Below, piece after piece: positions 4,242-53,975 of a stretch of DNA of 64,000 bases. Source of the stretch: an uncultured Chthoniobacter sp. (GTDB taxonomy: Bacteria > Verrucomicrobiota > Verrucomicrobiia > Chthoniobacterales > Terrimicrobiaceae); the NCBI GenBank assembly GCA_964600115.1, contig CAZRIL010000001.1:42810-106809 (forward strand), in the 5' to 3' direction. Positions within the stretch are counted from its first letter, which is position 1, and each line of letters begins with the position of its first letter. The position numbers were made by a program, and so were the translations under genes. Under the pieces are notes generated by a model that was given only the letters and a program-made list of their open reading frames with translations, searched no databases and was not told the origin of the DNA.

Positions 4242-5561
4242 ATGCTGACACCTGAATTCCCTCAACCCGATCAGCAGGTCATAAAGCCCACCAGGGACGC
4301 CACCGAGCTTCTGGAGTTTTTGTTCCGGCTTGGGCAGGGCTATATTGCCTGCGGAGAGCAGACTGCGAAGGTGGAACTCCTCCTTCGCCGCATCGCCGCA
4401 GCCTATGGGATGCGAAAGTCGCGGGTGGTCGCCTTTCCGACAGCGATTTTTATTTCGCTTCATGACAGCACCGGTGAGCGGGTGACTCTGGCCGACTGCC
4501 AGTCGCAAACTCTGCGCCTGGATCAAATGGCGGACATCTACGCATTGGGCGACGCCGCCCAGGGCGGCTTGCTGGAACTCAAGGACGGCTTGCAGCGCAT
4601 TGCCGCCATTCGACGCCAAAAGGCCCGCTTCGGAAGTGTGGGAGTCGTGGTGGGCCACTCTGTTCTGAGCGTGGGGTTGGCTATTGTCTTGATGCCGACA
4701 CCAGTCAACCTGGCAACCGCCGCTGTGCTGGGATTTGTGGTGGGGCTGATCAAACTTGCTAGCGCCGGACGCAGTGTCCTCTCCGTGCCGCTTCCAGTGG
4801 TGACATCAACCGCCGTCTCCTCCCTCGTTTTCCTGGCGATCCGCTATGGCCTCCCCATCGATCCGCTCCATGCCCTCATCCCTCCTCTGGTGACATTCCT
4901 GCCCGGGGGTATGTTGACCTTGGGAATGGTGGAGTTGGCGTATGGCGATATGGTCAGCGGAGCCAGTCGCCTGACCTCCGGTTTTGTTCAGCTTGTGCTG
5001 CTGGCATTTGGCTTGGGAATCGGTGCCGCGCTGACCGGGTATTTCCCAGAAGATCTCGTTTACTCGGCGGGCCTCTACGTGAATCTGCCGTGGGCACCCT
5101 GGGCCGGGGTCCTGGTTTTCGGCCTGGGCGTCTACTTTCACTTTTCCGGCCCTCGGAATTCTCTTCAGTGGTTGCTCCTGGTTTTGTTTCTTGCCTTCGC
5201 TGCGCAACGGTTGGCGGTAGGTCTCGTCGGCAGCGAGATCAGCGGCTTTTTTGGAACTCTTGTGGCGACGCCCGTCGCTTATCTCATCGAGATGAAATTC
5301 CGAGGTCCTCCTGCCGCTGTCACGTTTCTCCCGAGTTTCTGGCTGCTTGTGCCGGGATCGCTCGGGCTGTTGAGCGTGACCCGGATGATGAGCGACCGGG
5401 CGGCGGGTATAGACGGGTTGATAACCGTGATTTTTGTCATCGCCTCCGTGGCGCTGGGAACCCTCGTCGGCGCCTCGCTCTATCGATGGTTTACCGAAAG
5501 CTTCAGTGTTTGGGGGCTGCAAGTTGGCCGGGTTGCGACCTTTTTCCGAGGCGCAAAATAA
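4242..5561 (+). CDS. Threonine/serine exporter family protein (ThrE-like, fused DUF1212/DUF3815 type)
   Basis: Soluble-looking N-terminal segment ELLEFLFRLGQGYIACGEQTAKVELLLRRIAAAYGM followed by about 10 TM helices. This architecture matches ThrE/YjjP-YjjB-type proteins. Confidence 0.7.
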   Translation: MLTPEFPQPDQQVIKPTRDATELLEFLFRLGQGYIACGEQTAKVELLLRRIAAAYGMRKSRVVAFPTAIFISLHDSTGERVTLADCQSQTLRLDQMADIYALGDAAQGGLLELKDGLQRIAAIRRQKARFGSVGVVVGHSVLSVGLAIVLMPTPVNLATAAVLGFVVGLIKLASAGRSVLSVPLPVVTSTAVSSLVFLAIRYGLPIDPLHALIPPLVTFLPGGMLTLGMVELAYGDMVSGASRLTSGFVQLVLLAFGLGIGAALTGYFPEDLVYSAGLYVNLPWAPWAGVLVFGLGVYFHFSGPRNSLQWLLLVLFLAFAAQRLAVGLVGSEISGFFGTLVATPVAYLIEMKFRGPPAAVTFLPSFWLLVPGSLGLLSVTRMMSDRAAGIDGLITVIFVIASVALGTLVGASLYRWFTESFSVWGLQVGRVATFFRGAK

Positions 5562-5595: not shown

Positions 5596-6972
5596 TCAGA
5601 CCGCAGCCGCGAGTTCCGGCCAAAGGTGCGCCGCCATTTTCATCCCGGCCATGTATGCATCGAGCGAGAATTTCTCGTCGGGTGAATGTGCGTTGTCATC
5701 CGGAAGCGCGAGACCGAGCATGAGCGAATCAGCTTTCAGATATTTCTTGAATGCCGCGATAATCGGTATGCTCCCGCCGCCGCGGGCAAGGAGGCATTCC
5801 TGGCCGAACCCGAGTTTCGCTGCGCGCATGCAGGCCTGCGCGAGAGGTCCCGTGGGATCCACCATGTATGGTCCGCCGCCCTGACCCTCTGTGATGGTGA
5901 GTTTGACCGTCGGAGGGCAGATCGCCTTCAGATGCTTCTTCACGAGCGCGATGATTTTCTCCGGATCCTGGTCCGGAACGAGCCGCATCGTGATCTTCGC
6001 GCTCGCCCAGGAGGGGACGATCGTTTTTCCGCCCTCTCCCTGATACCCGCTGGTGAGGCCGTTGATTTCAAACGTGGGCCTCGCGGCGCGCTGTTCATCC
6101 GGGGTGTATCCGGCCTCACCGAAAAGCGCCGACACGCCAACGGATTTACGGAACTTCGCCTCGTTGAACGGCACTTTCGCCATTTGCTTCCGCTCATAGG
6201 CCGAGAGCTTCACCACGTCATCGTAAAAGCCGGGAATCGTGACGCCCCCGCGTTTGTTGCGAAGCGAACCGAGCATCTGACAGAGGACCATCGCCGGGTT
6301 GTCCACCGCACCGCCAAAGAGGCCGGAGTGCAGGTCGCGGTCCGGCCCGTCGAGCCGGATTTCGATTGGTGCCATTCCCCGGAGCGAGTAGCAGAGCGCG
6401 GGGTGCTTCATGCTCGGGATTTCGGTGTCCGAGACCACAAGAGCTTTACACGCGAGTTCCCTGGCATGCTTCGGGAGAAACCCGTAGAGCGCCTTGGAGC
6501 CGACCTCCTCCTCGCCCTCGATCAGGAAATTCACGTTGCAGGGCAGTTCGCTGCCGGTCTTCAGCCACGCTTCTACAGCGTTGATGTGGGCAAGGTGCTG
6601 CCCCTTATTGTCGCTGATGCCGCGGGCATAGACATTGCGTCCGACACGGCGCGGTTCGAACGGTGGCGATGTCCAGAGTTCGAGCGGTTCCGGCGGCTGC
6701 ACGTCGTAGTGGCCATAAACCAGAAACGTCGGCTTTTTCGGATCCGGTTTCGGCGTCCTCGCGATCACCACCGGGTAGCCGCTGGTCTTGCAGATTTCAG
6801 CCTTCAGGCCGGCCTTCCCGCACCGGTCGACGAGCCACTCCGCACAGAGCCGCATGTCACGGGCATGGTCCGACTGGGCGCTGATGCTGGGAATTCTTGT
6901 GTAGGCAAAGAGTTCGTCGATGAAGCGCTCTTCGTTGCTGGCAAGGTATTTGAGGACAGTCTCCGGGGTCAT
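5596..6972 (-). CDS. M20 family metallopeptidase (dipeptidase-like)
   Basis: M20 metal-binding motifs GHYDVQP, ISDNKG and EGEEEVGS. Start placed at MTPETVLKYL (ATG, minus strand, 6972). The ORF track extends to 7011. Confidence 0.85.
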   Translation of the reverse strand: MTPETVLKYLASNEERFIDELFAYTRIPSISAQSDHARDMRLCAEWLVDRCGKAGLKAEICKTSGYPVVIARTPKPDPKKPTFLVYGHYDVQPPEPLELWTSPPFEPRRVGRNVYARGISDNKGQHLAHINAVEAWLKTGSELPCNVNFLIEGEEEVGSKALYGFLPKHARELACKALVVSDTEIPSMKHPALCYSLRGMAPIEIRLDGPDRDLHSGLFGGAVDNPAMVLCQMLGSLRNKRGGVTIPGFYDDVVKLSAYERKQMAKVPFNEAKFRKSVGVSALFGEAGYTPDEQRAARPTFEINGLTSGYQGEGGKTIVPSWASAKITMRLVPDQDPEKIIALVKKHLKAICPPTVKLTITEGQGGGPYMVDPTGPLAQACMRAAKLGFGQECLLARGGGSIPIIAAFKKYLKADSLMLGLALPDDNAHSPDEKFSLDAYMAGMKMAAHLWPELAAAV

Positions 6973-7187
6973 ATTGTGAAAACTTATGAAACGACGTGCG
7001 CTTGCGGGCAATCCAATTGTTGTCGCCGCCAGAAAATAGGAGCGGTCCCCAAACCTCTTTCACGAGCAGGAGAGCGCCGGCTGGATAAATGGGACCCAAC
7101 TCTGGATTTTTGACTGCTCGCCCCCACTTTGACCACGCCAGTGCGCGTGTTCGAGTCCAACTTTCTATTGCATTCGGTCATAAAATC

Positions 7188-7199
7188 GTGAATATTCAC
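7188..7199. promoter_or_regulatory. Palindromic site GTGAATATTCAC
   Basis: Perfect 12-bp palindrome of the recurrent family G[GT]GAA[CT][GA]TTC[CA]C, in the 390-bp divergent region between the M20 peptidase and GH42 genes. Confidence 0.4.
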
Positions 7200-7403
7200 G
7201 GTCAGCCGTTCTCCTCCATAGTTAGAACCATGAAAACCATTCATTTCCACTGGGACTGATACTTTGAAGTTTACTTCGGCTTTGTTTTTTTTGTGACATT
7301 ATATTATGAGATGCCTCGGAGCCTGCCCCGGCGCATTTTCCGGCAGATCCCGGTCTGCTTCTGAGGGTTCGGATGTGTGCTCCTTGTGATCCATGATTGA
7401 ATT

Positions 7404-19037: not shown

Positions 19038-19110
19038 ACCGAATCATATGAAAAACCACCGTCTCCAACACCCTCCTCATTGCGGGAGAACAACGAGTCG
19101 TGCGACACGA

Positions 19111-22100
19111 ATGTCGCATCTCCGAAGAATCCTCTCCACCCCGGCTCCTTTCGGAGCGTTGAACCTGCTGGCGGTAACGGCTCTGGTCATTGCCGGAACT
19201 GTGACCCCGGCCTTCTGCGCGGACGCACCGCCCGCATCCGAGCGCCTGCTCCACGCCATGGACTCGACCGGGGGTCTCGGCGCCGGCGGGTGGCGGCTCG
19301 ACAAAACCATCGTCGGGATGAGCCCTGCCGGAATCGAGCCCAAGCTCGGCTCTGGATCGGTGCGGTTCAGCGGCGTGGCAACGATCCCCGGCGCAAAAGG
19401 CGACTTTCATCTGGTCGACAAACTTCCGGAATTCGAGAAACTTTCGGTGTGGGTTTACCTTTCCGAAGACTCGAACGTCAGCGAGGTCGGGCTGCAGGTT
19501 TGGGATGCGAACGGAGAGGGGCTCACAGAGAAGTTTCCGGCCGACTGGCACGGATGGAAGCAAATCGAGCTCAACGCGGAAAGCCCGGGGATCATCCAAT
19601 CCTGGAAACAGCCCGAGCAGGATGGCAAGCTGGACCAGCCGATCCGGATGCTCAACCTCGCATGGTTTGCCAAGGACGCCGGGCCGACACACATCGACGT
19701 GGACGGGCTGACCGGGACGTTCAAGGCCTCCGGGGCTTCCGCTCCGCCCATCGAGCTCAAGATCGAGCTCCCTCAGTCTGCGCAAAGCAATCAGCCGCTG
19801 GGCGGCTCGATCATCGTGCACAACGCGACCGGCAAGCCCCAGCAAGTGACGGCCGATTATACGCTGATCTCGAATCCGCAGCTCACGGACGTCCTGGCCC
19901 CGGATGCCGTCCACGGCTTGGACATCGCGCGCGGTGCAAAGGTGTGGACTATCACGGGCGAGGGAGAAGAGCCGGACACGACGCTCACTGACGGGCTCGT
20001 CTTCACGAACAAGGAATTTCCGTGGGACAAGGGATACGGCGAGGTGTCGCAGCGCATCGATCTGGGGGCCGCGCACAAGATCACGAAACTCGCGATCTTT
20101 CCGACCGATGCTAACTGGCTTTGGAACGCCGAAGTCTCGGCCTCGCTCGACGGCAAAACCTATCAGGTTGTGCCCGGCCTGGAAAAACTCGACCTCAACA
20201 AAAAGTGGACCGGAATCGAGGCAATTCCGACCGCGCCGGTCGAGGCCCGGTTCCTTCGATTCCGCTATTTCAATGACGGCGAAGCTCCGAAGCGGATCAG
20301 CCTGCCAAACGAGATCCGGGTTTACGACGGCATGGATGCCGCAGACCGGGTGGCCCCGGAGCTGGGCGGTGTGGCGGCCAAAGGGAAGCTCTCGTTCGAG
20401 GTTCCGGCCGGCAGCTTTGCTGTCCAGCCCCTCAAGGAGATCGTGCTTCCCGGCGAGGGCGCATACCTCCTCCGCGTAGAGACAAAGGCAGGCGATTTCT
20501 CAGACATCGCGCAAGCCACGCTCATCTCGTCACCTGCCGCGAACAAACCCGTCGACGCCGCCACATCCCGGTTCGGGATCAATGCTGCCAGCTTGAACCT
20601 CACCGACGACTGGGGCCCCTACGGGTTCGGTTGGGTGCGTTTTGAAAACATGAAATGGTTGATGTTTTCGCCGGCACGCGGCGAGTTTCGTTTTGACGGG
20701 TCGGTTGCTCCGTGGATGGTCCGTTTCGACGAGATCATGAAGCGCTACAACGATTGCGGGATGAAGGTGCTCCCCTACCTGTTCATGGTCCCCGAATATT
20801 CCTCGTCGGCCGGCCCGGAGGTGGACAAAAAGAACAGCGCCGCACATCCGCCGAAAGACCCCGCCGACTACGCCGAGGCCGTTTTCCAGGTCGTCGCGCG
20901 CTACGGGTCGAACAAGGTGCCGGCCGACAAACTGAAGACGCCGGACAAGATCACCGGGCTGAACCAGCTCGGCGCTGTCGAGATCTGGAACGAGCCGAAC
21001 CTTAATCCGAACCCCAATGCCACCTACGGCGCATGGGCCGCTCCGCTCGACCAGTTCTGGCCGGTGTTCCGAGCCGGGTCCGAAGGGGCAAAAGCCGCCG
21101 ATCCCAAGACCCCTGTCACGAGCCCCGGCATGGCCGGGCTGACGCTCGAAGTCCTGGAACCGCTGCGCCAGTTCCATTACCCGGACGGCAAAACTCCGGT
21201 GGATTTTTTTGACATCCTGAATGTCCACTACTACAGCGGCCGACAGGCGCCGGAGATTGCAACGAGGGACGGCAATGTCGTGCGGCAGGGAAGCGAGCAG
21301 TCTTCCATCACCTACCCGGAGAATCTGCGCGAGCTGATCGAATGGCGCGACATGTATGCCCCCGGAAAACCGATCTGGCTGACCGAAACCGGCTACGACA
21401 GCGCGGGGCCTTTCGGCACGAACGAAAGATACCAGGCGGCAAGGATTCCGCGTGTGATGCTTCTCGCGCTGGCTGCGGGAGTGGATAAAGTGTTCCTCTA
21501 CCGCGAGTCGGGCTCGACCCCGTCGATGCACGCTGCGGCGGGGCTTGTCCGCGACGACTCCTCGAGAAAGCCTTCGTATTTCACGGTGGCCACAATGCTG
21601 CGCGAGCTCGCTGGCATGTCGCAGGGCGGGACGCCAAGGCTCTCCGATCCGGATCCGAACATCTGGCTCTACGCGTGGGAAACTCCGAAGGGAACTGTGC
21701 TCGTTGCATGGACCGTGGACGGCGAGGCCAAACTTAATCTGGGTTCCGGGGAATGCGAGGTGGTGGATTCTTTCGGCGGACGCAAGAAGCTAAAAGGCGA
21801 CTCGATCGCCGTAGGGGAGTATCCGGTTTACATTCACGGGGCCGCTGACTGGCCCGAGGTCCGCAAGCGTGCAGATGCCGCGAAGCAGGCCGCGGAAAAG
21901 CTGGCTGCCGACAAGAAGAAACTGGCATCGACGCGCACGCTGATTTTTGATTTCGGCTCGCCCGACCAGCTTGTCGGTCTTCTCCGCGGCTACGGGCCGC
22001 CCAGAGCTTTCACTCCGGTCACCGGAGATGACTCTTACTCCCCTTCGACTGGATACGGTTTCGAAAAGGTCCCTGTCGTCACAAACAACAAGAAATGGAT

Positions 22101-22398
22101 GAAGGATGCGCTCGAGCGCGATTCCTGCCGCGTGAGAAAAGACAGCCCGTTCATCTTCGACGCGCCGCCCGGGAAATACGCACTCACGCTTTCCGCCAGC
22201 GGGGTCGGGGGGCCGGGCACGCTCGCGATCGAGGGCGCGACCAAGGCTGACGGATCGCCGGTCCAATTTGAGTTCGACGACAAAACGCCAACGCAAACAG
22301 CGGAGATCATTGTCACGTCACCGCAACTGCGCCTGACCACGGACAAATACGCCGACGTGCGCTGGATGTCACTCGTCGAAATCTCCGGCAAACCGTAG
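19111..22398 (+). CDS. Large secreted multidomain glycoside hydrolase, clan GH-A (GH39/GH5-like catalytic core) with CBM-like and discoidin-like modules
   Basis: Signal peptide after MSHLRRIL. Acid/base motif VEIWNEPNL and nucleophile motif IWLTETGYDS. An F5/8-type-C-like stretch lies around ...EARFLRFRYFNDG. Family number not determined. Confidence 0.7.
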   Translation: MSHLRRILSTPAPFGALNLLAVTALVIAGTVTPAFCADAPPASERLLHAMDSTGGLGAGGWRLDKTIVGMSPAGIEPKLGSGSVRFSGVATIPGAKGDFHLVDKLPEFEKLSVWVYLSEDSNVSEVGLQVWDANGEGLTEKFPADWHGWKQIELNAESPGIIQSWKQPEQDGKLDQPIRMLNLAWFAKDAGPTHIDVDGLTGTFKASGASAPPIELKIELPQSAQSNQPLGGSIIVHNATGKPQQVTADYTLISNPQLTDVLAPDAVHGLDIARGAKVWTITGEGEEPDTTLTDGLVFTNKEFPWDKGYGEVSQRIDLGAAHKITKLAIFPTDANWLWNAEVSASLDGKTYQVVPGLEKLDLNKKWTGIEAIPTAPVEARFLRFRYFNDGEAPKRISLPNEIRVYDGMDAADRVAPELGGVAAKGKLSFEVPAGSFAVQPLKEIVLPGEGAYLLRVETKAGDFSDIAQATLISSPAANKPVDAATSRFGINAASLNLTDDWGPYGFGWVRFENMKWLMFSPARGEFRFDGSVAPWMVRFDEIMKRYNDCGMKVLPYLFMVPEYSSSAGPEVDKKNSAAHPPKDPADYAEAVFQVVARYGSNKVPADKLKTPDKITGLNQLGAVEIWNEPNLNPNPNATYGAWAAPLDQFWPVFRAGSEGAKAADPKTPVTSPGMAGLTLEVLEPLRQFHYPDGKTPVDFFDILNVHYYSGRQAPEIATRDGNVVRQGSEQSSITYPENLRELIEWRDMYAPGKPIWLTETGYDSAGPFGTNERYQAARIPRVMLLALAAGVDKVFLYRESGSTPSMHAAAGLVRDDSSRKPSYFTVATMLRELAGMSQGGTPRLSDPDPNIWLYAWETPKGTVLVAWTVDGEAKLNLGSGECEVVDSFGGRKKLKGDSIAVGEYPVYIHGAADWPEVRKRADAAKQAAEKLAADKKKLASTRTLIFDFGSPDQLVGLLRGYGPPRAFTPVTGDDSYSPSTGYGFEKVPVVTNNKKWMKDALERDSCRVRKDSPFIFDAPPGKYALTLSASGVGGPGTLAIEGATKADGSPVQFEFDDKTPTQTAEIIVTSPQLRLTTDKYADVRWMSLVEISGKP

Positions 22399-40499: not shown

Positions 40500-40585
40500 G
40501 GTCTGAAAGACTGGGATGGCGTTAGCATCCAGGACAGCGGATTTCCATTCGACACCATCGAAGACAGGAAATCCAGAAAAGTTTC

Positions 40586-40597
40586 GTGAACATTCAC
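40586..40597. promoter_or_regulatory. Palindromic site GTGAACATTCAC
   Basis: Lies in the divergent region between the BNR-4-like (-) and MFS (+) genes. Confidence 0.45.
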
Positions 40598-40752
40598 GGG
40601 ATGGGGGTTGACTGTCCGCGCGCGGCATCGTAGTTATTGCGGTGTCCGGTCCCCGCCATTCTCAGCAACGTGGAAAACATCTCCTCTGACATGCCGCATT
40701 TTCCGCGATTCCGTCCCGGAGCCTCAGGGTTTGATGGCAGGCGCAAAAAACA

Positions 40753-42388: not shown

Positions 42389-45300
42389 ATGCTATCTACA
42401 AGAGGCTTCTGGTCTGCGACCTGCGGAGGAATCCGGATGGTTCACAGGCGGCGGGGGATGGCGCTTGTCATTGTCCTGGCATCCTTGGTTTTGCTGTCGA
42501 TCCTGGTTGTCAGCATCCTGACGTCGGCCCGGCAGGAAGTGACTTCCTCCAATTCCTACGGGGCTGGCAGCGATGCCAAACTGCTGGCCGACCTTCCCTT
42601 AAATCTCGTTACCGCACAGATTGCGAAGGCGACCTCGAACCCCGACCAGGCGTGGATTTCCCAACCCGGGCTCCTGCGCACATTCTCGCCGGATGGCCAG
42701 CAGAAGGCCTTCAAGCTGTATTCCTCTTACAAAATGGAGGAGTCCGGAACCTATGATCCTGGCAGTGCGGCGGCACTCTCGGCCGACGTTCCCGACAAGT
42801 GGTTTGAAAAGCCGGACGAGTTCGTGGATTTGAACCGGCCCATCCAGTTCGGAAACCGCAAGATCTACCCGATCGCGGACCCGAATGCTTACGATGCGTC
42901 CAAGCCCTCTGACTCGCTCGTGCAGGGGTTTTCCTACGATGTGCCGGCTGCCATCAACCCGCCTGCAGGGAACGCCACAACCAACCTGCTTCCGATGCCG
43001 GTGCGGTGGATTTACGTGACGGCGGACGGCGAGTTCGTCGGTGTGGACGACGCCAGACGCCGGGAGGCGGTTGCCCGGGTGGCCTTCTGGACCGACGACG
43101 AAAGTTGCAAGGTCAACCTCAACACGGCTTGCGGCGGAGTTTTCTACGACACGCCCTGCACGAACACCTTGGAAGACCACATGCTGGGCCGCACCCAGCC
43201 GATCGCGCAGGAGTACCAGCGGTGGCCCGGGCATCCGGCCACGACCAGCCTCGCACCCGTGCTCAAGCCCTTGCGCGATATCGCCGATCCGGTCGCGCGC
43301 TCCCGGATTGCGGCCGGGCTCACACCGAGAATCGCCTGGGGGGGATCTTCGGGAGGAACAAAATACGCCTGGCTCACGCGCGAGCTTGGCTCGACGGATA
43401 TGGACCGCCTTTACGCCACGCCGGACGAGCTCTCATTCGGCAAAGGCCTCGATGCCGCCGGCCTGCGGGTCTCGAACACCGTGAACGGCATTGATCTGGA
43501 GAGCGGCGGCCAGAAGCTCGATGAGCTCCGCTTTTTCCTGACCACACAAAGCCGTTCGCCCGAACTGACCTTGTTCAATCGGCCGCGCATCAGCCTCTGG
43601 CCGTTCAACGAGGAGATGGTGCAGACCACTGTGGACGGACGCCTCACTCCCGAAGACCGGCTCATCCGCTTCGCGTCGGAACTTGGCGGCGTGAAGGCCG
43701 ACGGAACGCTCGATTACACGAAGCGCAAGCGGTTCTACTTCCAGCGCAAGAGCGCGTGGGATCCGGCGGCAGACTGGCGGGATATCCCGTCCAACCGCGC
43801 GATTTTCCGCTACCTCCAGGACATGACCGCGCGCTCGCTGCCCTCGGCAAAATCCGACCGCGCCGGAACTGAGACCCTCCGGTCCAAATACGGTCAGGCC
43901 AACCGGGACTCCATTCTCGCCTGCATGTGGGACTATTTGAGAAGCGGGGTGAACACGGTCAACCAGGCCTATGTGCCGGTCGGGTTCCTGCCCTATTCAT
44001 TTCCTCAGGGATACGACACCACAATCTCGGGGTTCAATGACGTGGCGCCCCTCGTCATTTCCGACCTCGGGACAAAAGGCATGGGCCGCCATCCCGTGCT
44101 CACCGAGGTGATTTTCCAGTTTGTCAACATGGGGGATGATTTTGAAAAGGATGCCTCCGGCACGGCGATCGACCAGCGCGATAACAACAACCCCGCCAAC
44201 CTCACGCCCGATGGGATGCCGGACTATGTCATCCGCAGGGTCCGCATGGTTGTCCTGTTGAATTTTCAGATGCCTGTAACCAGCCTGTATGGCAGCCTGC
44301 CGCGGCTTCAGGTGAAGATAACCGGCTCCACACCGTTCAACTTTGTGACGGATAATGCCTCGCTCTCCCCGGTTCCCAGCCCTCTCATGAACCCCGGACT
44401 ATCCCAGCCGATCAATGTCCGGAATGTGGCCGGCGGTATCCCGTCATGGACGACCACGCTGGCGCCTGCAGGCATCGGGTTTCCCGCCCCGGCGTCGGAC
44501 GGAGCTTTTCGCAACACCAACTACGTCGGCTCGTTTTTTAACGGCAGGAGCTCCTACGATACCCGGGGGGGAATTTTGGGGCCCGGCTTCGGAATGTATG
44601 CCGTGATCGAGAACAAGATGAAATCGAGCAACAGTTCCACCGACCCGGAAAACGTCCACCGCCTCAAGGTTCTTTCCAACCGGGCCTCAACGCTGGAGGC
44701 CGCCGACCTGGCTTGGCGGAATTCATCCGCCTCATCGTGGGCGGCGCGCGAGGACGTCTATTACCCCTTCGTCAGCGACGTGATCGAATTTCGCCTTCCG
44801 CAGAAGGGCCGGACATTCACTCCTCCCAGCCTTCTGCCAAATCCGCTTCCGTCTCCCAATCTGGCAGACCCGGTGAACTCCTATACCACGGGCATGGTCG
44901 GCGGCACGATCACCCCCGCCGGGAAGGATTACTTCGAAGCGTTCCTCTCCGGAGGCACTCTCGATGTGGCGGTTTATCCGGGCCTGCAGGATTCGGCCAC
45001 AGCCCTCTCTCCCATCGGTTCGAATTGGCAGGCTCAAACCGGCACGAATTATTTGATGAAGACCACGATCAACGTGGGCAGTGCCGTCATCCCGCTCCCG
45101 CGGCCGGGGCCTGACCTGGTCAATGCTTCGAGGGGAACCAGCATCCCGAACCCTCCGAGCCCACCCACATTTTTGGCGATGGGCAACTATTACGAGCGGA
45201 CGAAGCTGGTCTACGTCGACAACCTGCTCCAAGTCCCATCCAAGATCACAACGAGCGCGACCCCGGTCGTCACGACGCAGATGGACGTCTTCCGCTCCTA

Positions 45301-46783
45301 CCTGCTGCAGGGCGGGGCTCCTGTGAATGGCGACTTGCGCCTCGCGGCGCTGCGCTCCGAGATTCCCTCGTCCTGGTGGCAGCCGCATCCGCTTTTTTCT
45401 ACACGAGGGGTTTTTCACGGAACCAGCTTCCTGCCTGGCCAGCAGCAGCAAGCCACTCCGATTGATGCAGCGAGCGGTGAAAAGGCGGATCTCTGCACGG
45501 TTGACGGCGACACCGCCACGACGAACCCGTTCACGGCCCGCAGCAAAGGGGGCAGGCTGCACAGCGGGATCTCGATCTACAATACCGGAGCTTATCGCGC
45601 GACCTCGCCGGCGGCCAAATCCTCCTCCCGGAACGGATCGGCGGCAGTCGGGGATTTTACTCTGGGCTTCGGGAATATCTCTGCGGGCGCGGTGGTGGCC
45701 GGTCCGGATCTGGGAGGAGTTTCCTGGGAACAAAACGTGGCAAGCTCTTTGACGACCACCGGCCCATATTTTTCCGGAGAGTTCAGCCGGGCCGGATCGA
45801 ACGATACCGCCACTGTTACCGGCGGAGCGTCGGGCAAAAATCTGACGGGCATCATGTATTCCCCCTTCAAGCAGGTGCCCTCGCCGGTCATCTTCGGCAG
45901 CATCCCCTCACGCGCGGGGGACCCGGCACCAGGATCATGGGAGACGCTGCTTTTCTGCCCGAACCCGGCGGGCGGAAAGAACACCCATCGCGGCTGGACT
46001 CAGGCTCCCCGCGACCATTACCTGCTCGACCTGTTCTACATGCCGGTCGTCGAGCCCTACGCGATCACGGAAAACTTCGCGACGGCCGGCAAGGTGAACC
46101 TCAACTACCAGATTGCGCCGTTCACCTACATCAAGCGCAAGACCGCACTCTACGCGCTCATGGATAGCATGACGGCAAACTCCACATTCAGCCTTGCCCC
46201 CAACTACACAGGGAACGCTGCAGGGTCGGCGATTGTTGCGGTGCCCGATACCGAAGCTTCCAACACCGCCTATCGCACGGTTTCCAACGGCGTGAAATTG
46301 TCCCAGGCCGGGGCGGCCTCCTACCGGAAATTCGTGGATGCCGAAAATACGCTGAAAGCGTTCGACACGCGGTTTGACACGCAGAACGACCCGTTTGTAT
46401 CACCTTCGGAAATCTGCGAGATGTTCTTGAGTCCGGTCGGAGCGGCTGCCGCGGAGGCCTTCTGGGCCGACAAGACGCTGACCGGAGACGATAAACGGGA
46501 GATGCCTTACAATCACCTTTACCCCCGCGTCACCACCCGGTCCAACACGTTCCGGGTCCATTTCTGGGTGCAGGCCCTGAACTCCCGCCTCGGTCGCGAA
46601 AATCCGATCGTCACCGGCGAATACCGGGGCTCCACAATTATTGAAAGATACCTCGACCCCAATATCACGGAATATGGCACCGGTTTCGGCGATGGGAATT
46701 CGTTCGATGTGAATGCGGCCTTTCCTCCCCTGAACGACCGCTACCGTTTCCGCCAGCTCGAGCACCAACAATTTGCTCCATGA
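42389..46783 (+). CDS. Verru_Chthon cassette protein A-like giant protein (GspK/PilX-like N-terminal segment)
   Basis: 1464-aa ORF. The N-terminus RRGMALVIVLASLVLLSILVVSILTSARQE is a pseudopilin-like hydrophobic helix lacking Glu5. The rest has no motif I recognise. Size and context match my recollection of TIGR02600. Alternative starts at 42437 and 42458. Confidence 0.7.
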   Translation: MLSTRGFWSATCGGIRMVHRRRGMALVIVLASLVLLSILVVSILTSARQEVTSSNSYGAGSDAKLLADLPLNLVTAQIAKATSNPDQAWISQPGLLRTFSPDGQQKAFKLYSSYKMEESGTYDPGSAAALSADVPDKWFEKPDEFVDLNRPIQFGNRKIYPIADPNAYDASKPSDSLVQGFSYDVPAAINPPAGNATTNLLPMPVRWIYVTADGEFVGVDDARRREAVARVAFWTDDESCKVNLNTACGGVFYDTPCTNTLEDHMLGRTQPIAQEYQRWPGHPATTSLAPVLKPLRDIADPVARSRIAAGLTPRIAWGGSSGGTKYAWLTRELGSTDMDRLYATPDELSFGKGLDAAGLRVSNTVNGIDLESGGQKLDELRFFLTTQSRSPELTLFNRPRISLWPFNEEMVQTTVDGRLTPEDRLIRFASELGGVKADGTLDYTKRKRFYFQRKSAWDPAADWRDIPSNRAIFRYLQDMTARSLPSAKSDRAGTETLRSKYGQANRDSILACMWDYLRSGVNTVNQAYVPVGFLPYSFPQGYDTTISGFNDVAPLVISDLGTKGMGRHPVLTEVIFQFVNMGDDFEKDASGTAIDQRDNNNPANLTPDGMPDYVIRRVRMVVLLNFQMPVTSLYGSLPRLQVKITGSTPFNFVTDNASLSPVPSPLMNPGLSQPINVRNVAGGIPSWTTTLAPAGIGFPAPASDGAFRNTNYVGSFFNGRSSYDTRGGILGPGFGMYAVIENKMKSSNSSTDPENVHRLKVLSNRASTLEAADLAWRNSSASSWAAREDVYYPFVSDVIEFRLPQKGRTFTPPSLLPNPLPSPNLADPVNSYTTGMVGGTITPAGKDYFEAFLSGGTLDVAVYPGLQDSATALSPIGSNWQAQTGTNYLMKTTINVGSAVIPLPRPGPDLVNASRGTSIPNPPSPPTFLAMGNYYERTKLVYVDNLLQVPSKITTSATPVVTTQMDVFRSYLLQGGAPVNGDLRLAALRSEIPSSWWQPHPLFSTRGVFHGTSFLPGQQQQATPIDAASGEKADLCTVDGDTATTNPFTARSKGGRLHSGISIYNTGAYRATSPAAKSSSRNGSAAVGDFTLGFGNISAGAVVAGPDLGGVSWEQNVASSLTTTGPYFSGEFSRAGSNDTATVTGGASGKNLTGIMYSPFKQVPSPVIFGSIPSRAGDPAPGSWETLLFCPNPAGGKNTHRGWTQAPRDHYLLDLFYMPVVEPYAITENFATAGKVNLNYQIAPFTYIKRKTALYALMDSMTANSTFSLAPNYTGNAAGSAIVAVPDTEASNTAYRTVSNGVKLSQAGAASYRKFVDAENTLKAFDTRFDTQNDPFVSPSEICEMFLSPVGAAAAEAFWADKTLTGDDKREMPYNHLYPRVTTRSNTFRVHFWVQALNSRLGRENPIVTGEYRGSTIIERYLDPNITEYGTGFGDGNSFDVNAAFPPLNDRYRFRQLEHQQFAP

Positions 46784-46790
46784 CAAGCCG

Positions 46791-46862
46791 TTCATGCGAC
46801 AGGAAAACCAGCGCGATAGCGCTTCGCAGTTTGGGGAAGTCGAATGCTTGGCCCAGGGAGGG
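46791..46862 (+). repeat. 72-nt intergenic element, copy 1
   Basis: ttcatgcgacaggaaaaccagcgcgatagcgcttcgcagtttggggaagtcgaatgcttggcccagggaggg. It starts 7 nt after the stop of gene A, is 61/72 identical to copy 2 by hand alignment, and is followed by the hairpin GGCAAC-N16-GTTGCC (46861..46888). Confidence 0.65.
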
Positions 46863-46961
46863 CAACCGGAGCGAAGCGAAGCGTTGCCGCATCCCCTCAC
46901 GGATGGCGAAACCACCCCACCCGAAAATCTTGCGTCTTTCTGCATATCTGAGACTGTTTAT

Positions 46962-46973
46962 GGGAACGTTCCC
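46962..46973. promoter_or_regulatory. Palindromic site GGGAACGTTCCC inside the pilin-like cassette
   Basis: Perfect palindrome about 22 nt upstream of ATG 46990 (gene B), in the 206-bp spacer after gene A. Confidence 0.5.
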
Positions 46974-46989
46974 GTGCAGTCCTCCCGAT

Positions 46990-47454
46990 ATGAATTCCCC
47001 ACGCCTCCATTTTGGATCCCGCCGGGCGGCTTCATGGGCCGGGGCGGGTGGCTTCACCCTCGTGGAAGTGCTGCTGGCGCTCGGGATCGTGTCGTTTGCC
47101 TTCATGGCCCTGTGCGGCATGCTGCCTGTGGGGCTGCAGACCTACCGCGACGCGATGGATGCGACCTGCCGGGCGAATATTGTCCGGGTGATCAGCGCCG
47201 AGCTTACGCAGGCACCGTATGCCGGGATTGATGCCTGGATGGGACAGGAACGGTTTTTTAGCGACCAGGGATTGGAGGTGGCGTCAGCGGACGAGGCCCG
47301 GTTTCGAGTGAAATATGAGAACGTCCTTCCGGGCACCTCACTGTTTGGTGCGACAAACTCCTCACTGAAGCCTGTCACGATAAATATATCCTCGATACAG
47401 GACGGCAAATCCATGTCGCGCGTCACCGTGTTCATCGCAGACAATGGCTCCTGA
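46990..47454 (+). CDS. Verru_Chthon cassette protein B-like, prepilin-type N-terminal cleavage/methylation domain
   Basis: MNSPRLHFGSRRAASWAGAGG|FTLVEVLLALGIVSFAFMAL is a class III signal-peptide-like sequence with Glu at +5. 154 aa. Confidence 0.75.
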   Translation: MNSPRLHFGSRRAASWAGAGGFTLVEVLLALGIVSFAFMALCGMLPVGLQTYRDAMDATCRANIVRVISAELTQAPYAGIDAWMGQERFFSDQGLEVASADEARFRVKYENVLPGTSLFGATNSSLKPVTINISSIQDGKSMSRVTVFIADNGS

Positions 47455-47575
47455 TCTTTCTGGCGGCCCGGGCATGCCGCGCGACGCCGGTCTGCGAGGC
47501 AGCGCAAATCATGGAGCGATGCCGCCCGCGGCGTCCGCCCTGCCGCGGCAATGGCGCCGAAGGCGATGCCGGTCC

Positions 47576-48708
47576 ATGCGTCCCGCGTTTACTATTTTGG
47601 AGCTGCTCGTTGCCATGGCCGTGATGGCGCTGATCATGGTCGTGATCGGCGGGATGTTCTCTGCCGTTTCAAAATCCTGGAAGTCGGGTTCCGGGCGCGC
47701 GGCGTCGTTCGCGGCAGCGCGGGCGGCCTTTGAGTCGATGAGCCGAAACCTTTCGCAGGCGACGCTGGCCACCTACCTGAGCTACGCCGACAGCTCGGGA
47801 AACCCGGTGCCGCTCATCAACCCCTCGTTCAAGCCCGCCAGCGGAAGCGTCTCCCGAACGAGCGTTCCCACGCAATACCTCCGGATGTCGGAGCTGCATT
47901 TCATCACGGACAGGGCGGCCAAATTGTTCGCGGACGCAGGAATCTCCGGCCTCGTCACGACCGGTCAGGCTGTTTTTTTTCAGGCGCCGACGAGCTTTGT
48001 TCAGGCACAGGACAACCGCCCGAAGGCCAGCCTCCTGAACGTTCTGGGCTATTACATCGAATTCGGAACCGACGACGCATTCAAGCCTGGCGCGGTGAAC
48101 TCTCTGGTGGCATCGCGTCAGCGCTACCGGCTCATGGAGGTCGCCCAGCCGGCCGAGCGGAACGGCATTTACGAAAGCACCTGCGAGCTGGATGCGCAGG
48201 GGCTTGCAAAATATGCCTCCGACCTCAGGTGGCTTGCCAGGTTGATTCTTGTCACTCCGACGGAATCCACGCCGCTGGAAAAGCAGCCGCTGGCGGAAAA
48301 CGTCATCACGATGGCGTTTCTGCCGCGTCTCTCGCCAATCCAATCGGCCGATCCCGCCGGGCTGACCAAGGATTTTTCCTATGACAGCCGCGCGTGGGAG
48401 GTCACCGGATCGAGTGGCGACCCGCGCCTCCGGAACCAGCTTCCTCCGCTCATCGAGCTGGTCATCGTCGCGATCGATGAACCCTCAGCGCAAAAGCTCT
48501 CAGCGCTTTATGGCGGGGCTGGCGGATCGTCGCCGCCCTTTGCGGATCCCGCCGTTCGTGCCAAGGTGGATCTGGACGCCCTTTTCAAGGATCCCACAAG
48601 GCTGGAAGCGGACATCAAGACTCTCGAAGACGGAATGAACATGCTGCAGGTGAACTACCGGGTCTTCCGGACAACTGTCGCGATGCATGGCGCAAAATGG
48701 ACCGAACG

Positions 48709-48712
<4 letters not shown>
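47576..48712 (+). CDS. Verru_Chthon cassette protein C-like, prepilin-type N-terminal domain
   Basis: MRPAFTILELLVAMAVMALIMVVIGG. Start uncertain, with in-frame ATGs at 47444 and 47519. About 378 aa. Confidence 0.7.
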
Positions 48713-49380
<668 letters not shown>

Positions 49381-50828: not shown

Positions 50829-51010
50829 ATTCAACAGGGGCGGTGTCAATCCAAAACCCTTGCCCCCGCACATCCGGGCTGCCGGGGAACTCCAGGAGGT
50901 TCTGCATTTCTGTCTGCCAAACCGCAATCTTCGATCTTAAATCCGGAACCCTTGCCGCCTAAATATCCTTCACTCAATCTTCAAGCGCCGTCACACTGAT
51001 CGAAAAATAC

Positions 51011-51022
51011 GTGAATGTTCAC
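51011..51022. promoter_or_regulatory. Palindromic site GTGAATGTTCAC
   Basis: About 38 nt upstream of ATG 51055 (URO-D family gene). It is the second site in the divergent region 50799..51054. Confidence 0.5.
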
Positions 51023-51054
51023 GTTATTCTTGAGGTATCCGCAACGATTCGTGT

Positions 51055-52089: not shown

Positions 52090-52283
52090 ATCCGGTCGTC
52101 ACTGCAGAAACGGCATTCAGGAATGGGAACCACCAACGGCCGCTCAAGTCCACGGACGCAAGAGAGAATCGGGTTTGCAAACCGGCTTCCACCCACCTGG
52201 GAAGAGTTGCAACCGCTCTCCGTTAGTGCCTTTCAATGCATTTTAGTGGTTCCCCATCGTTTTCTGGGGAATCATTTTTCACC

Positions 52284-53492
52284 ATGAAAACTGCTTCCCG
52301 GCAGACTCTCCTTGTTCCTGAGTTTTTTGAAAATTTCCGCCGGCGCGCCCGGGAAGGGGAGTTGTCGAACCATGCGGGGATGCGGCAATTGCTGGCGCAT
52401 GCAGAGTTCGCACTGGCGGCCGGGCCGTTCTCCGTTACTGACAAGAAGCACCTGCCGCCCTCGGGCGACAAGCGGGACTATTTCAGCCTCAGCATCTATT
52501 TCTGGCCGAACCCGGAGACTCCCGACGGACTGCCGTATGTGCCGAGGGACGGGCAGCCGAACCCTGAGATCTCAGACTACGACCGTCCGCGGTTTGAGGA
52601 GTTCTGCCGGAATGTGGACGTCCTCGCGCTTGCCTACGCCGCGACGGGTGACGAGAGATTTGCGTCCAAGGCTGCCGCCCTGCTGCGCGCCTGGTTCGTG
52701 GACGAGAAACTGCGCATGAACCCGAATATGCTCTTCGCGCAATTCATCCCGGGCGACAATGTCGTCCTGCCGTGGAAGGAATATCCGGCACGCTTCGTCC
52801 CCGGAACGGACGGCAGAAAGGGCGTCTATGTCTCCTTCGGCGGGACGATCGAAGACCTCAACCTCATCCCGCTCACGGATTCGATCGCTCTGCTGGAACC
52901 TTCGCCCCACTGGTCCGGCAGGGATCAGGCTGCCGTGGTGAAATGGTATGCCGATTACGCGGAGTGGCTGCTCACCCACCAGCACGGGCTGGACGAGGCC
53001 GCCTGCAGAAACAATCACGGTTCCTGGTATTGGGCGGGTATCGTCTGCTTTTTGAACTTCTCGGGCCAGCGGGACCGCGCGGGAGAACTTGCGGCGAAAG
53101 TTCTCCCGGAACGCCTAAAACTTCAGATCGAACCCGACGGATCCCAGCCGGAGGAACTCGTGCGCGCAATATCCATGAACTACACGTCGTTCGCTCTCTG
53201 CTCGTTCACGAATTTTGCGATCTCCGCCAAAAAATGCGGCTTCGATGCCTGGAATTTCGAGTCGGACGACGGCAGGTCAATCCGACGCGCCATGGATTGG
53301 CTCGCTCCTTACCTCACCGGAGAAAAGGAGTGGAGGTGGAAGCAGATCAGCCCGTTCGACCCGGAAATCCTCGTCGGCCAACTCGCCGCCTCCTCGTCCG
53401 CATATTCGGACCCCGCCTACCTCGAAATCATCCCCCGGCTCCCGGGGCTCCGGGAGGATTCCGTCATGCACCTCATATACTCTGCCGGATGA
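52284..53492 (+). CDS. Alginate-lyase-domain (PF05426-like) polysaccharide lyase family protein
   Basis: KRDYFSLSIYFWPNPETPDGLPYVPRDGQPNPE matches the conserved N-terminal block of alginate_lyase-domain proteins as I recall it. No signal peptide seen. Confidence 0.6.
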   Translation: MKTASRQTLLVPEFFENFRRRAREGELSNHAGMRQLLAHAEFALAAGPFSVTDKKHLPPSGDKRDYFSLSIYFWPNPETPDGLPYVPRDGQPNPEISDYDRPRFEEFCRNVDVLALAYAATGDERFASKAAALLRAWFVDEKLRMNPNMLFAQFIPGDNVVLPWKEYPARFVPGTDGRKGVYVSFGGTIEDLNLIPLTDSIALLEPSPHWSGRDQAAVVKWYADYAEWLLTHQHGLDEAACRNNHGSWYWAGIVCFLNFSGQRDRAGELAAKVLPERLKLQIEPDGSQPEELVRAISMNYTSFALCSFTNFAISAKKCGFDAWNFESDDGRSIRRAMDWLAPYLTGEKEWRWKQISPFDPEILVGQLAASSSAYSDPAYLEIIPRLPGLREDSVMHLIYSAG

Positions 53493-53494
53493 AT

Positions 53495-53566
53495 TTCGTG
53501 CGTCAGAAAATCCAACGCGATACCGCTTCGGAGTTTGAGGCAGTCGAATGTTTGGCCCAGGGACGG
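53495..53566 (+). repeat. 72-nt intergenic element, copy 2
   Basis: ttcgtgcgtcagaaaatccaacgcgataccgcttcggagtttgaggcagtcgaatgtttggcccagggacgg. It starts 2 nt after the stop of the alginate-lyase-like gene, in the same orientation as copy 1. Confidence 0.65.
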
Positions 53567-53569
53567 TGC

Positions 53570-53596
53570 CCCGGGCGGCGAGGACAGCCGCCCGGG
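53570..53596 (+). other. GC-rich stem-loop (10-bp perfect stem, 7-nt loop)
   Basis: CCCGGGCGGC-gaggaca-GCCGCCCGGG lies immediately 3' of repeat copy 2. No U-run follows, so it is not a canonical intrinsic terminator. Confidence 0.5.
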
Positions 53597-53938
53597 AGAT
53601 CATTCGCAAGTTGACCCGCAGGGGGAGAAGGGCGGGAGCGAACGACCGAACTGATACCGCAGCGAAACGAGTCGTTGTCGCACCTCCGAAGAGTCCCCGG
53701 CGGGGTTCATTCTTCTCCACCACAAACCAGTTGCCCGGCAAGTCCCATCACTGCCGCAAAATGGACTCCGCTTCGTGAACATGCCCGAATATACCCAATT
53801 GGCTGAAAGACAGTGAAATAGCACGGTTTAACCCGATTTTATCAACAAATTCCGAACTGCAGCAGCGCCCCTGACACATTCCGAGGTGGATTACGATTGT
53901 GTGGCCTTCAGATTTCAGTTGACTTTGTTCCGCAGATC

Positions 53939-53950
53939 GTGAAGATTCAC
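53939..53950. promoter_or_regulatory. Near-palindromic site GTGAAGATTCAC (one mismatch to the family pattern)
   Basis: About 32 nt upstream of ATG 53976 (PEP-CTERM protein). A second degenerate copy, GTGAACATGCCC, lies at 53775..53786. Confidence 0.4.
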
Positions 53951-53975
53951 GAAAACTTTTCTCCCCCTAAAATCC

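Follow-up and report, generated by a model that had tools for sequence, protein, structure and literature searches.

REP/REPIN-RAYT systems are mostly known from Proteobacteria, where the hairpin loops are short, and REP families are normally species-specific. Y1 (RAYT-type) transposases handle REP-type elements as single-stranded DNA, and a Y1 gene flanked by REP doublets is the arrangement that defines the REP-associated Y1 transposases. A REP has been defined as an imperfect palindrome with a stem of 5–13 bp and a loop of 2–20 nt (PMC3733652, Table 1), and GTAG-tagged REPs have been reported in the verrucomicrobium Opitutus terrae (PMC3733652). REPs also serve as insertion targets of insertion sequences such as IS1397 (PMC1525189), and in Pseudomonas putida ssr9 of ISPpu9 (IS110 family), a selfish non-coding sRNA module, inserts into REPs with the transposase acting in trans (PMC12288879).

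The locus examined here is a 64,000-nt stretch of DNA from an uncultured Chthoniobacter sp. (the window), which contains two copies of an element that lies after stop codons. Both copies are probably REP/REPIN-type repeats with a loop expanded by a conserved module of about 81 nt (module A) and, in copy 2, by a further module (module B) nested in A. Like the REPs and REPINs of Escherichia coli and Pseudomonas, they combine an imperfect GC-rich palindrome of 8 bp with a short tag that is unpaired, are extragenic after stop codons, form inverted doublets and tandem clusters, are present or absent at orthologous sites, and belong to a family whose doublets flank a Y1 transposase gene, though in the closest relative (L072) and not in the window. 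They depart from these systems in that the window loops hold a conserved structured insert of 81 or 81+81 nt and not 2–20 nt, the insert is conserved across genomes with differing REP stems, and the tag of the window family is GGAG/CTCC and not the GTAG (or CGTC) of classical REPs. Resemblance to the BIMEs of enterobacteria and the BOX elements of Streptococcus pneumoniae lies in the construction as mosaics of a few short modules in variable number and order, with internal modules repeated in tandem and with motifs, themselves not palindromic, that lie within palindromes or between them, but there is no sequence relationship, and the modules here lie inside hairpin loops and inside each other and not only between palindromes. 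By analogy, the closest precedent appears to be above all ssr9 of ISPpu9, together with the REP-targeting insertion sequences. There too a short non-coding module without a transposase of its own is found at a fixed point inside REPs, either joined to its partner modules or apart from them, and has been regarded as a selfish passenger. However, no IS110-type or other transposase adjoins A or B, and neither terminal A/B boxes nor a shared core dinucleotide can be defined for the modules described here. What is new is a Verrucomicrobiota REP family that carries covarying, combinable loop modules of about 80 nt that are absent from Rfam.

Structure of the two copies and of an empty hairpin

The first-pass annotation had reported that 46791-46862 and 53495-53566 are 61/72 identical and follow stop codons, and a recount gave the same identity and placed the starts of both copies 3–8 nt past the stop codons of ORFs 42389-46783 and 52236-53492. 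The former encodes Verru_Chthon cassette protein A (TIGR02600, 764 bits) and the latter an alginate lyase (PF05426); these are chromosomal genes of 1464 and 418 aa in conserved synteny. A repeat finder extended the similarity to 83 nt at 81 %, and an nhmmer profile of the pair found the two copies as the sole matches in the window (E ~1e-24; next best E = 0.33). The 72-nt block is non-coding, as had been argued from the first, because the 11 differences are spread 4/4/3 across the codon positions, 8–10 codons are non-synonymous in each plus-strand frame, and indels of 1–5 nt between fixed anchors separate the family members. The idea that it encodes a conserved small peptide, for example M/V-RQ..QRD.AS.F..VECLAQG, draws on one frame that is open in both copies with an ATG or GTG start, but in this frame 3 codon differences are synonymous and 8 non-synonymous, with no preference for a codon position, and indels of 1–5 nt break the frame across the family; the idea deserves virtually no credence and is taken to be ruled out by the substitution pattern and the indels.

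The 72-nt similarity is module A common to both copies and nothing more. The similarity that was noted is there, but the elements that contain it are longer, at 46794-46898 and 53498-53696, the second with a degenerate partner hairpin at 53702-53721. Module A is a discrete unit of about 81 nt that starts with AAAACC, ends with AGC (...GCGAAGC), and reads AAAACC, hairpin P2 (AGCGC-GNNA-GCGCT), TCGTG and a variable linker, GGG.., GTCGAATGTTTGG, hairpin P3' (GCCC-AGGGA-GGGC) and AACCGNAGCGAAGCGRAGC. Module B, of about 81–94 nt, is inserted in A after GGGCAAC and is made up of CCAGGCGGC..GCCGC, TCGGGAGA, a hairpin, CCCGCAGGGCGAGA, a hairpin with a GGGA loop, and GAGTCAAC. The features in the window are as follows.

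46794..46801, plus strand: copy 1, 5' arm of the REP-like hairpin, ATGCGACA; 7/8 pairs with 46885-46892
46804..46884, plus strand: copy 1, module A (AAAACC...GCGAAGCGT); covariance-model match of 98.8 bits, homologous to about 40 distinct units
46810-46823, plus strand: copy 1, hairpin P2 (AGCGC-GATA-GCGCT), within module A
46839-46851, plus strand: copy 1, invariant core GTCGAATGCTTGG, within module A
46850-46863, plus strand: copy 1, hairpin P3' (GGCCC-AGGGA-GGGC), which covaries
46885..46898, plus strand: copy 1, 3' arm of the REP-like hairpin, TGCCGCAT, which pairs with the 5' arm, and unpaired tail CCCCTC
53498..53505, plus strand: copy 2, 5' arm of the REP-like hairpin, GTGCGTCA; 7/8 pairs with 53676-53683, orthologous to GTGCGACA in L072
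53507..53570, plus strand: copy 2, 5' part of module A; covariance-model match of 63.6 bits, and alignment
53571..53651, plus strand: module B nested in copy 2, matched by the B profile (nhmmer E = 2.4e-13)
53652..53675, plus strand: copy 2, 3' tail of module A past the B insert, TGATACCGCAGCGAAACGAGTCGT; 84 % to L072 6257-6324
53676..53696, plus strand: copy 2, 3' arm of the REP-like hairpin, TGTCGCAC, and tail/linker CTCCGAAGAGTCC, the tail compared with other REPs
53702..53721, plus strand: degenerate second REP of the doublet (GGGGTTCA-TTCT-TCTCCACC), from alignment to L072
19100..19132, plus strand: empty hairpin of the same REP family (GTGCGACA-CGAA-TGTCGCAT and tail CTCCGAAGAATCC); 4-nt loop, no module

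A REP-type palindrome of 8 bp, tailed by CTCC, thus surrounds each copy, which in substance bears out the suggestion that the element is REP-like, and the same palindrome is also found empty, in inverted doublets and, in the closest relative, on either side of a Y1 gene. The stems are 8 bp with 7/8 paired, the loops are about 83 nt (copy 1) and about 170 nt (copy 2), and the outer pair differs between the copies on both sides, that of copy 1 having changed from G-C to A-T relative to the family consensus GTGCGACA/TGTCGCAC. The closing stem was established via the same hairpins found empty; compared with shuffles its duplex energy is weak (z no better than about -2). In module A of copy 2, P2 is degenerate (AACGC-GATA-CCGCT) and P3' is altered (GGCCC..GG-U-GCC), while the core GTCGAATGTTTGG is kept. 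The nested module B comprises, in order, stem 1 (CCCGGGCGGC/GCCGCCCGGG), CGGGAGA, the second hairpin, CCCGCAGGGGGAGA and a third hairpin region ending in CGAAC. Homology to copy 1 resumes past B, with 53652-53696 matching 46866-46898, and the A tail TGATACCGCAGCGAAACGAGTCGT also aligns to the long-form consensus TGATACCGGAGCG. The copy 2 tail shares 12 of 13 bases with the tail of the empty hairpin (19120-19132) and with the REP doublets of L066, L072 and L073. Copy 2 is followed by CTCCGAAGAGTCCCCGG and by the degenerate second hairpin at 53702-53721, the counterpart of which in L072 is GGTGGATA-TTCC-TGTCCACC, giving the inverted doublet that characterizes a REPIN. The empty hairpin at 19100-19132 falls in the 5' end of ORF 19048-22398 as listed; a signal-peptide-like stretch follows the hairpin, and hence the true start of this gene is probably downstream of it.

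Two hairpins had been described behind the 72-nt blocks and both are present, GGCAAC-N16-GTTGCC at 46861-46888 and CCCGGGCGGC-N7-GCCGCCCGGG at 53570-53596. They are not equivalent, as the second is stem 1 of the inserted module B, and the claim that hairpin position is conserved while sequence is not does not hold. The compensatory pairing that had been proposed between CTTCG(C/G) and (G/C)CGAAG fares no better, since in copy 2 the CCGAAG block is located in the REP tail CTCCGAAG, also present on the empty hairpin at 19120. This pairing and its variant GCGCUUCG/CGRAGCG were rejected on these grounds and because there are uncompensated changes, CCTCG in L018 and CTCCG in L060, and the tail is absent in L017 and L061. 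An alternative helix, GGGACCAA/UUGGCCC around a GUCGAAUGU loop, was also discarded, being only loosely compatible and not recovered by RNAalifold. A scan for intrinsic terminators found no plus-strand site after copy 1, and after copy 2 it flagged 53691-53708, which is the linker of the REP doublet; on the minus strand P2 followed by GGTTTT was flagged as terminator-like, with only 5 pairs and 4 T.

Distribution, arrangement and covariation of modules A and B

A species-level scan (one genome per species) with the pattern GTCGAATGNTTGGCCCAGG returned 16 loci, about the chance expectation for 18 fixed bases. The full element is present in four of these, in the Verrucomicrobiota MAGs L003, L006, L007 and L008 (nhmmer E 1e-9 to 1e-13), and the other 12 match the 19-nt core only. 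The same pattern found 46 loci in metagenome contigs. The full element is present at approximately 30 of these, and several hold two to four copies; loci L018–L062 stem from lake metagenomes. A covariance model built from 20 units gave 48 matches, 42 distinct. Profile, pattern and covariance-model scans therefore place about 40 distinct A units beyond the window, in four Verrucomicrobiota MAGs and about 30 metagenome contigs, and the pair seen in the first pass is part of a larger family. The invariance of the core is partly imposed by the 19-nt search pattern, but of the five units found independently of it (two in L066, one in L072, L047 1461-1545 and a remnant in L073) the A copies in L066 and L072 retain most of the core. 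Viral contigs contained no match to the core, and a phage origin was rejected on this basis. A full-text literature search with the core sequence found no paper.

Module A occurs singly, in tandem, with B nested in it, and in the reverse nesting. Head-to-tail arrays of A with a period of 73–88 nt are found in L038, L062, L024, L057 and L006, and in L038, L062, L024 and L006 the arrayed units lie outside any hairpin. B is nested in A in copy 2 of the window and in L007, L024, L030, L037, L050 and L057; reverse nesting is represented by A inside B in L057 and by B inside the GTCGAAT segment of A in L030, and B is found alone twice each in L017 and L047. Short repeats accompany some of the clusters. 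In L024 the module cluster is preceded by (GGAAAGY)x5 at 3196-3255 and followed by (GAAGTCA)x4 at 3560-3600, both microsatellite-like, and heptamers of the GCGGAAA type precede units in L006 and L056. On the minus strand of L030, at 4016-4060 and about 1 kb from an A/B cluster, there is a match to the Acido-Lenti-1 RNA (RF01687) of 34.4 bits, under the gathering score of 37.

The hairpins that enclose the modules belong to several families, and module A has been found in at least four unrelated REP stem families. The window family has CTCC (GGAG in the opposite strand) as its conserved tail in place of GTAG, and its empty form with a 4-nt loop is found at 19100 in the window and in L066, L060, L067, L072 and L073. 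Inverted doublets with a second hairpin GGTGGACA-GGAA-TGTCCACC are present in L066, L072 and L073. Hairpins of this family number 3 in the 64 kb of the window, 13 in 11.6 kb in L073 and 4 in 16 kb in L066. In L066 empty hairpins are adjacent to filled ones, with two pattern-free A units, one per hairpin type, next to them. In other MAGs, A or B occupies the loop of a GGACGCC..GGCGTCC-CTACC or GGCGGG..CCCGCC-CTACC palindrome; the complement of this palindrome starts GGTAGGG and so carries the GTAG tag of classical REPs, and the palindrome is abundant in empty form. The orientation of A is constant, with the hairpin tail always on its 3' side. Tandem arrays with a period of 124–125 nt in L026 (~550-680), L036 (~1780-1900) and L047 (~5240-5500; all reverse-strand counting) consist of GTAG-tagged REP hairpins (GGACGCC..GGCGTCC-CTACC) and conserved linkers and are BIME-like.

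Using RNAalifold on 20 pattern-selected A units, only P2 and P3' were predicted and no covariation was seen. Covariation was then assessed on a model-based alignment that included the pattern-free copies. Here P3' has two compensatory pairs, C-G to U-A in 4 sequences and C-G to G-C in 5, with 95.5 % of cells paired, the observed covariation score was reached by none of 500 shuffles, and P2 showed no covariation. Module B has compensatory changes in 7 of 16 predicted pairs across 12 copies, affecting three helices. Given this covariation in one A hairpin and three B hairpins, one folded strand of A and of B is under constraint, and RNA and single-stranded DNA are alike compatible with it. In the strand test A is balanced, with 6 G.U-type against 5 A.C-type cells, and for B on the plus strand the count of 5 G.U against 2 C.A cells is only suggestive.

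Orthologous sites, the Y1 transposase and neighbouring genes

Copy 1 lies in the gap between genes A and B of the Verru_Chthon cassette A-B-C-D, which is complete at 42389-49380 in the window (TIGR02600, 02598, 02599, 02596), encodes a large GspK-like protein and three prepilin-type pseudopilins, and keeps its synteny in L063, L066, L067, L072 and L073. This gap is 176 nt in the window and 76–78 nt, without the element, in the orthologous cassettes of L063 (72 % identity) and L066 (77 %, for cassette protein A); in L067 (70 %) it contains an empty hairpin in the other orientation and in L073 it contains 3.5 REP doublets. At the copy 2 site, L072 (MAG GCA_037146855.1; 88 % orthologue) has the same hairpin with A but without B, and either B was inserted in the window lineage or it was lost in the L072 relative. 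In L073 (84 %) this site retains only an internally deleted A followed by doublet arrays. When filled and empty sites were compared no target-site duplication was found; a MITE, whose terminal repeats the hairpin arms might supply as inverted repeats of 8 bp, was discounted since there is no direct duplication.

The copy 2-site hairpin of L072 is followed by its partner hairpin, by a gene for a 193-aa Y1_Tnp protein (6366-6947; 26.8 bits against a cut-off of 23, with an HVH motif) and by a second, empty doublet. The Y1 gene in this closest relative is therefore flanked by REP doublets on both sides, and the left doublet is orthologous to copy 2. No Y1 transposase homologue was found in the window by tblastn, and either the window lineage lost this gene or it never had it. 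More Y1_Tnp genes were found in L029 and L071. Those at L071 5960-6620 and L029 2020-2790 are RAYT-like, encode 150–151 aa and are flanked by other, inverted palindromes (CCCAGGGT..ACCCTGGG; GGCATGGGCATCCTGCCCATGCC with TGGGGTTTGGCCATTTTC), and hence at least three REP/RAYT systems coexist in this bacterial group.

The genes that flank the element are unrelated. They include purC and an ACP gene, ilvD and a UDP-glucose dehydrogenase gene, ABC transporter genes, an MFS gene, and genes for a GDSL lipase, PEP-CTERM proteins and an IS4 transposase. The element has the same orientation as both neighbours at the two window sites and in L056 and L027, and is opposite to both in L006, L007 and twice in L066. 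A cis-regulatory role tied to the neighbours is thus excluded by the mixed orientation and the unrelated flanking genes, together with absence from orthologous A-B gaps, and the link to the downstream genes made in the first-pass annotation falls with the copies of the cassette that lack copy 1. In annotation, similarity after the cassette A and alginate lyase genes should not be equated with shared regulation of pseudopilin or PEP-CTERM genes.

A separate motif, the palindrome TCGTGAA-N2-TTCACGA, has 14 matches in the window with up to 3 mismatches, against 2.7 expected, and is probably the palindromic site that had been placed ahead of both downstream genes. It is exact at 53937-53952, but upstream of gene B there is only the looser GGGAACGTTCCC. 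The sites include 7186-7201, 40584-40599, 51009-51024 and 53937-53952, and the best copies are 20–170 nt upstream of ORF starts. The motif looks like the operator of a dimeric regulator.

Interpretation of the modules

The location after stop codons, the patchy presence, the decay and the link to a Y1 gene all follow from REP biology (PMC3733652, PMC2817692, PMC3337134). If the copies are REP/REPIN-type repeats, the composite would spread or decay like other REPINs, with a RAYT acting on the folded strand, and A and B may be nested non-autonomous passengers that enter hairpin loops. The similarity among A and among B units would then be kept by their own recognition, for which particular unpaired sequences and hairpins would be needed. 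Their place after stop codons would reflect where REPs are tolerated and not regulation, and the host would be affected, if at all, only incidentally, for instance through a stable 3' hairpin on an mRNA.

REP biology does not account for modules A and B themselves. A is a discrete unit, found in the at least four stem families and in hairpin-free arrays, with near-invariant unpaired segments and a covarying helix, and its core is near-invariant across genomes with unrelated REP stems, though REP families are normally species-specific, which points to a constraint on A beyond REP biology. Also at odds with a simple REP reading are the tandem arrays without a hairpin, window loops (~83 and ~170 nt) far above the 2–20 nt described for REPs, and a window without a Y1 gene and with only three family hairpins in its 64 kb. 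Neither a target-site duplication nor a defined insertion mechanism for A or B was found, and the GNRA-like tetraloops and long conserved junction strands are equally compatible with RNA. It is possible, if somewhat doubtful, that A and B represent an undescribed class of small structured Verrucomicrobiota elements, either a loop-inserting non-autonomous mobile element or a structured RNA closed by a REP stem and spread by REP/RAYT; in the latter version the RNA would be a ribozyme-like or protein-binding fold with the REP stem as closing helix. Either version would explain the near-invariant core despite the unrelated REP stems.

A further alternative, that A acts as a functional structured RNA, alone or with B, be it a small RNA, a 3'-UTR stabilizer or a self-cleaving or ligand-binding fold, seems unlikely. 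The hairpin arms would then be a closing stem P1 of a three-way junction P1/P2/P3' with long conserved junction strands, and such a fold agrees with the covariation in P3' and the three B helices, with P2 loops that are mostly GNNA and B loops of GGGA, and with the contrast between conserved junction sequences, GUCGAAUGUUUGG among them, and variable loops and linkers. The excess of G.U over C.A cells in B on the plus strand (5 against 2), the G.U-only changes in the tail hairpin of L027 and L039, and the terminator-like score of minus-strand P2 with GGTTTT are in keeping with it. However, the A strand test is balanced (6 against 5), P2 never covaries, the element has either orientation to the flanking genes and is absent from orthologous operons, and the tandem units leave no room for promoters. 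The broken P2 of copy 2 and the internally deleted L073 remnant also indicate that local copies decay, and Rfam has no matching family; Rfam 15 gave no window matches at gathering thresholds, and at E <= 10 there was nothing relevant around copy 1 or in 8 element-rich loci, and none in the REP region of L066. Of the structured RNA that the first-pass annotation had thought possible, what stands is the covariation of the GCCC/GGGC helix of A and of the three B helices, and what tells against it is the strand test of A and the mixed orientation to genes.

A protein-binding site in double-stranded DNA is very unlikely. For a sigma-54-like promoter, TGGCCC-N5-GGGCA resembles the -24/-12 elements, with GG and GC dinucleotides at the right spacing, and AGCGC-N4-GCGCT could be an operator or enhancer palindrome, its stem sequence being invariant and its 4-nt spacer free as for a dimer site; that some BIMEs carry an IHF motif offers a parallel for reading A as a nucleoid-protein site. 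But several copies lack the presumed -12 GC (GGACAA; GGTGCC in copy 2), and the GCCC/GGGC arms show compensatory changes, which are incompatible with a fixed protein site. In L006, L007, L017 and L066 the element is directed away from its next gene or runs counter to it, and a tandem spacing of about 80 nt is odd for promoters, and on these four counts a sigma-54 or ECF promoter was rejected. Finally, the modules could be unusual attC-like recombination sites of integrons and the arrays cassette arrays without a nearby integrase. A unit does abut the stop codon of an integron integrase gene in L017 and L061 (TIGR02249, 399 bits), where the 3' end of the integrase gene and the unit are tandemly duplicated, small toxin-antitoxin-like ORFs lie between element clusters in L030 (by eye), and units come after stop codons. 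Yet inspection revealed neither RYYYAAC...GTTRRRY outer boxes nor a long imperfect palindrome, and the arms lack complementarity; the GTT/AAC of P3' is of opposite polarity, the duplication junction is a 5-nt microhomology and not a site-specific crossover, an integrase adjoins one of about 30 independent loci, and in the window the genes ahead of the copies are chromosomal, encode 1464 and 418 aa and lie in conserved synteny. We regard attC-like sites as extremely improbable.

Returning to REP/REPIN-type repeats with loop inserts, if the modules are passengers they would add a second tier of parasitism to a transposase system that has been domesticated, comparable to ssr9 of ISPpu9; if they are RNAs, they would form a new RNA class for which an alignment is already in hand.

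Two regions with unusual surroundings are recorded here. At L017 11500-13351 and L061 1-1668 a module A unit abuts the intI stop codon in convergent orientation, and a segment made up of the last ~140 nt of intI and A is tandemly duplicated over 205–221 nt with a TTTGC microhomology joint; in L017 the pseudo-copy is split by an insertion of module B. The intI stop is followed by 11 nt whose reverse complement is found 140 nt upstream, as the H-L-L-E codons; the 11-nt sequence and these codons differ between L017 and L061 in a correlated way. At L030 ~1700-2600, small ORFs for a MazF/PemK-type toxin-like and a Phd/YefM-type antitoxin-like protein, recognized by eye, are located between A/B clusters.
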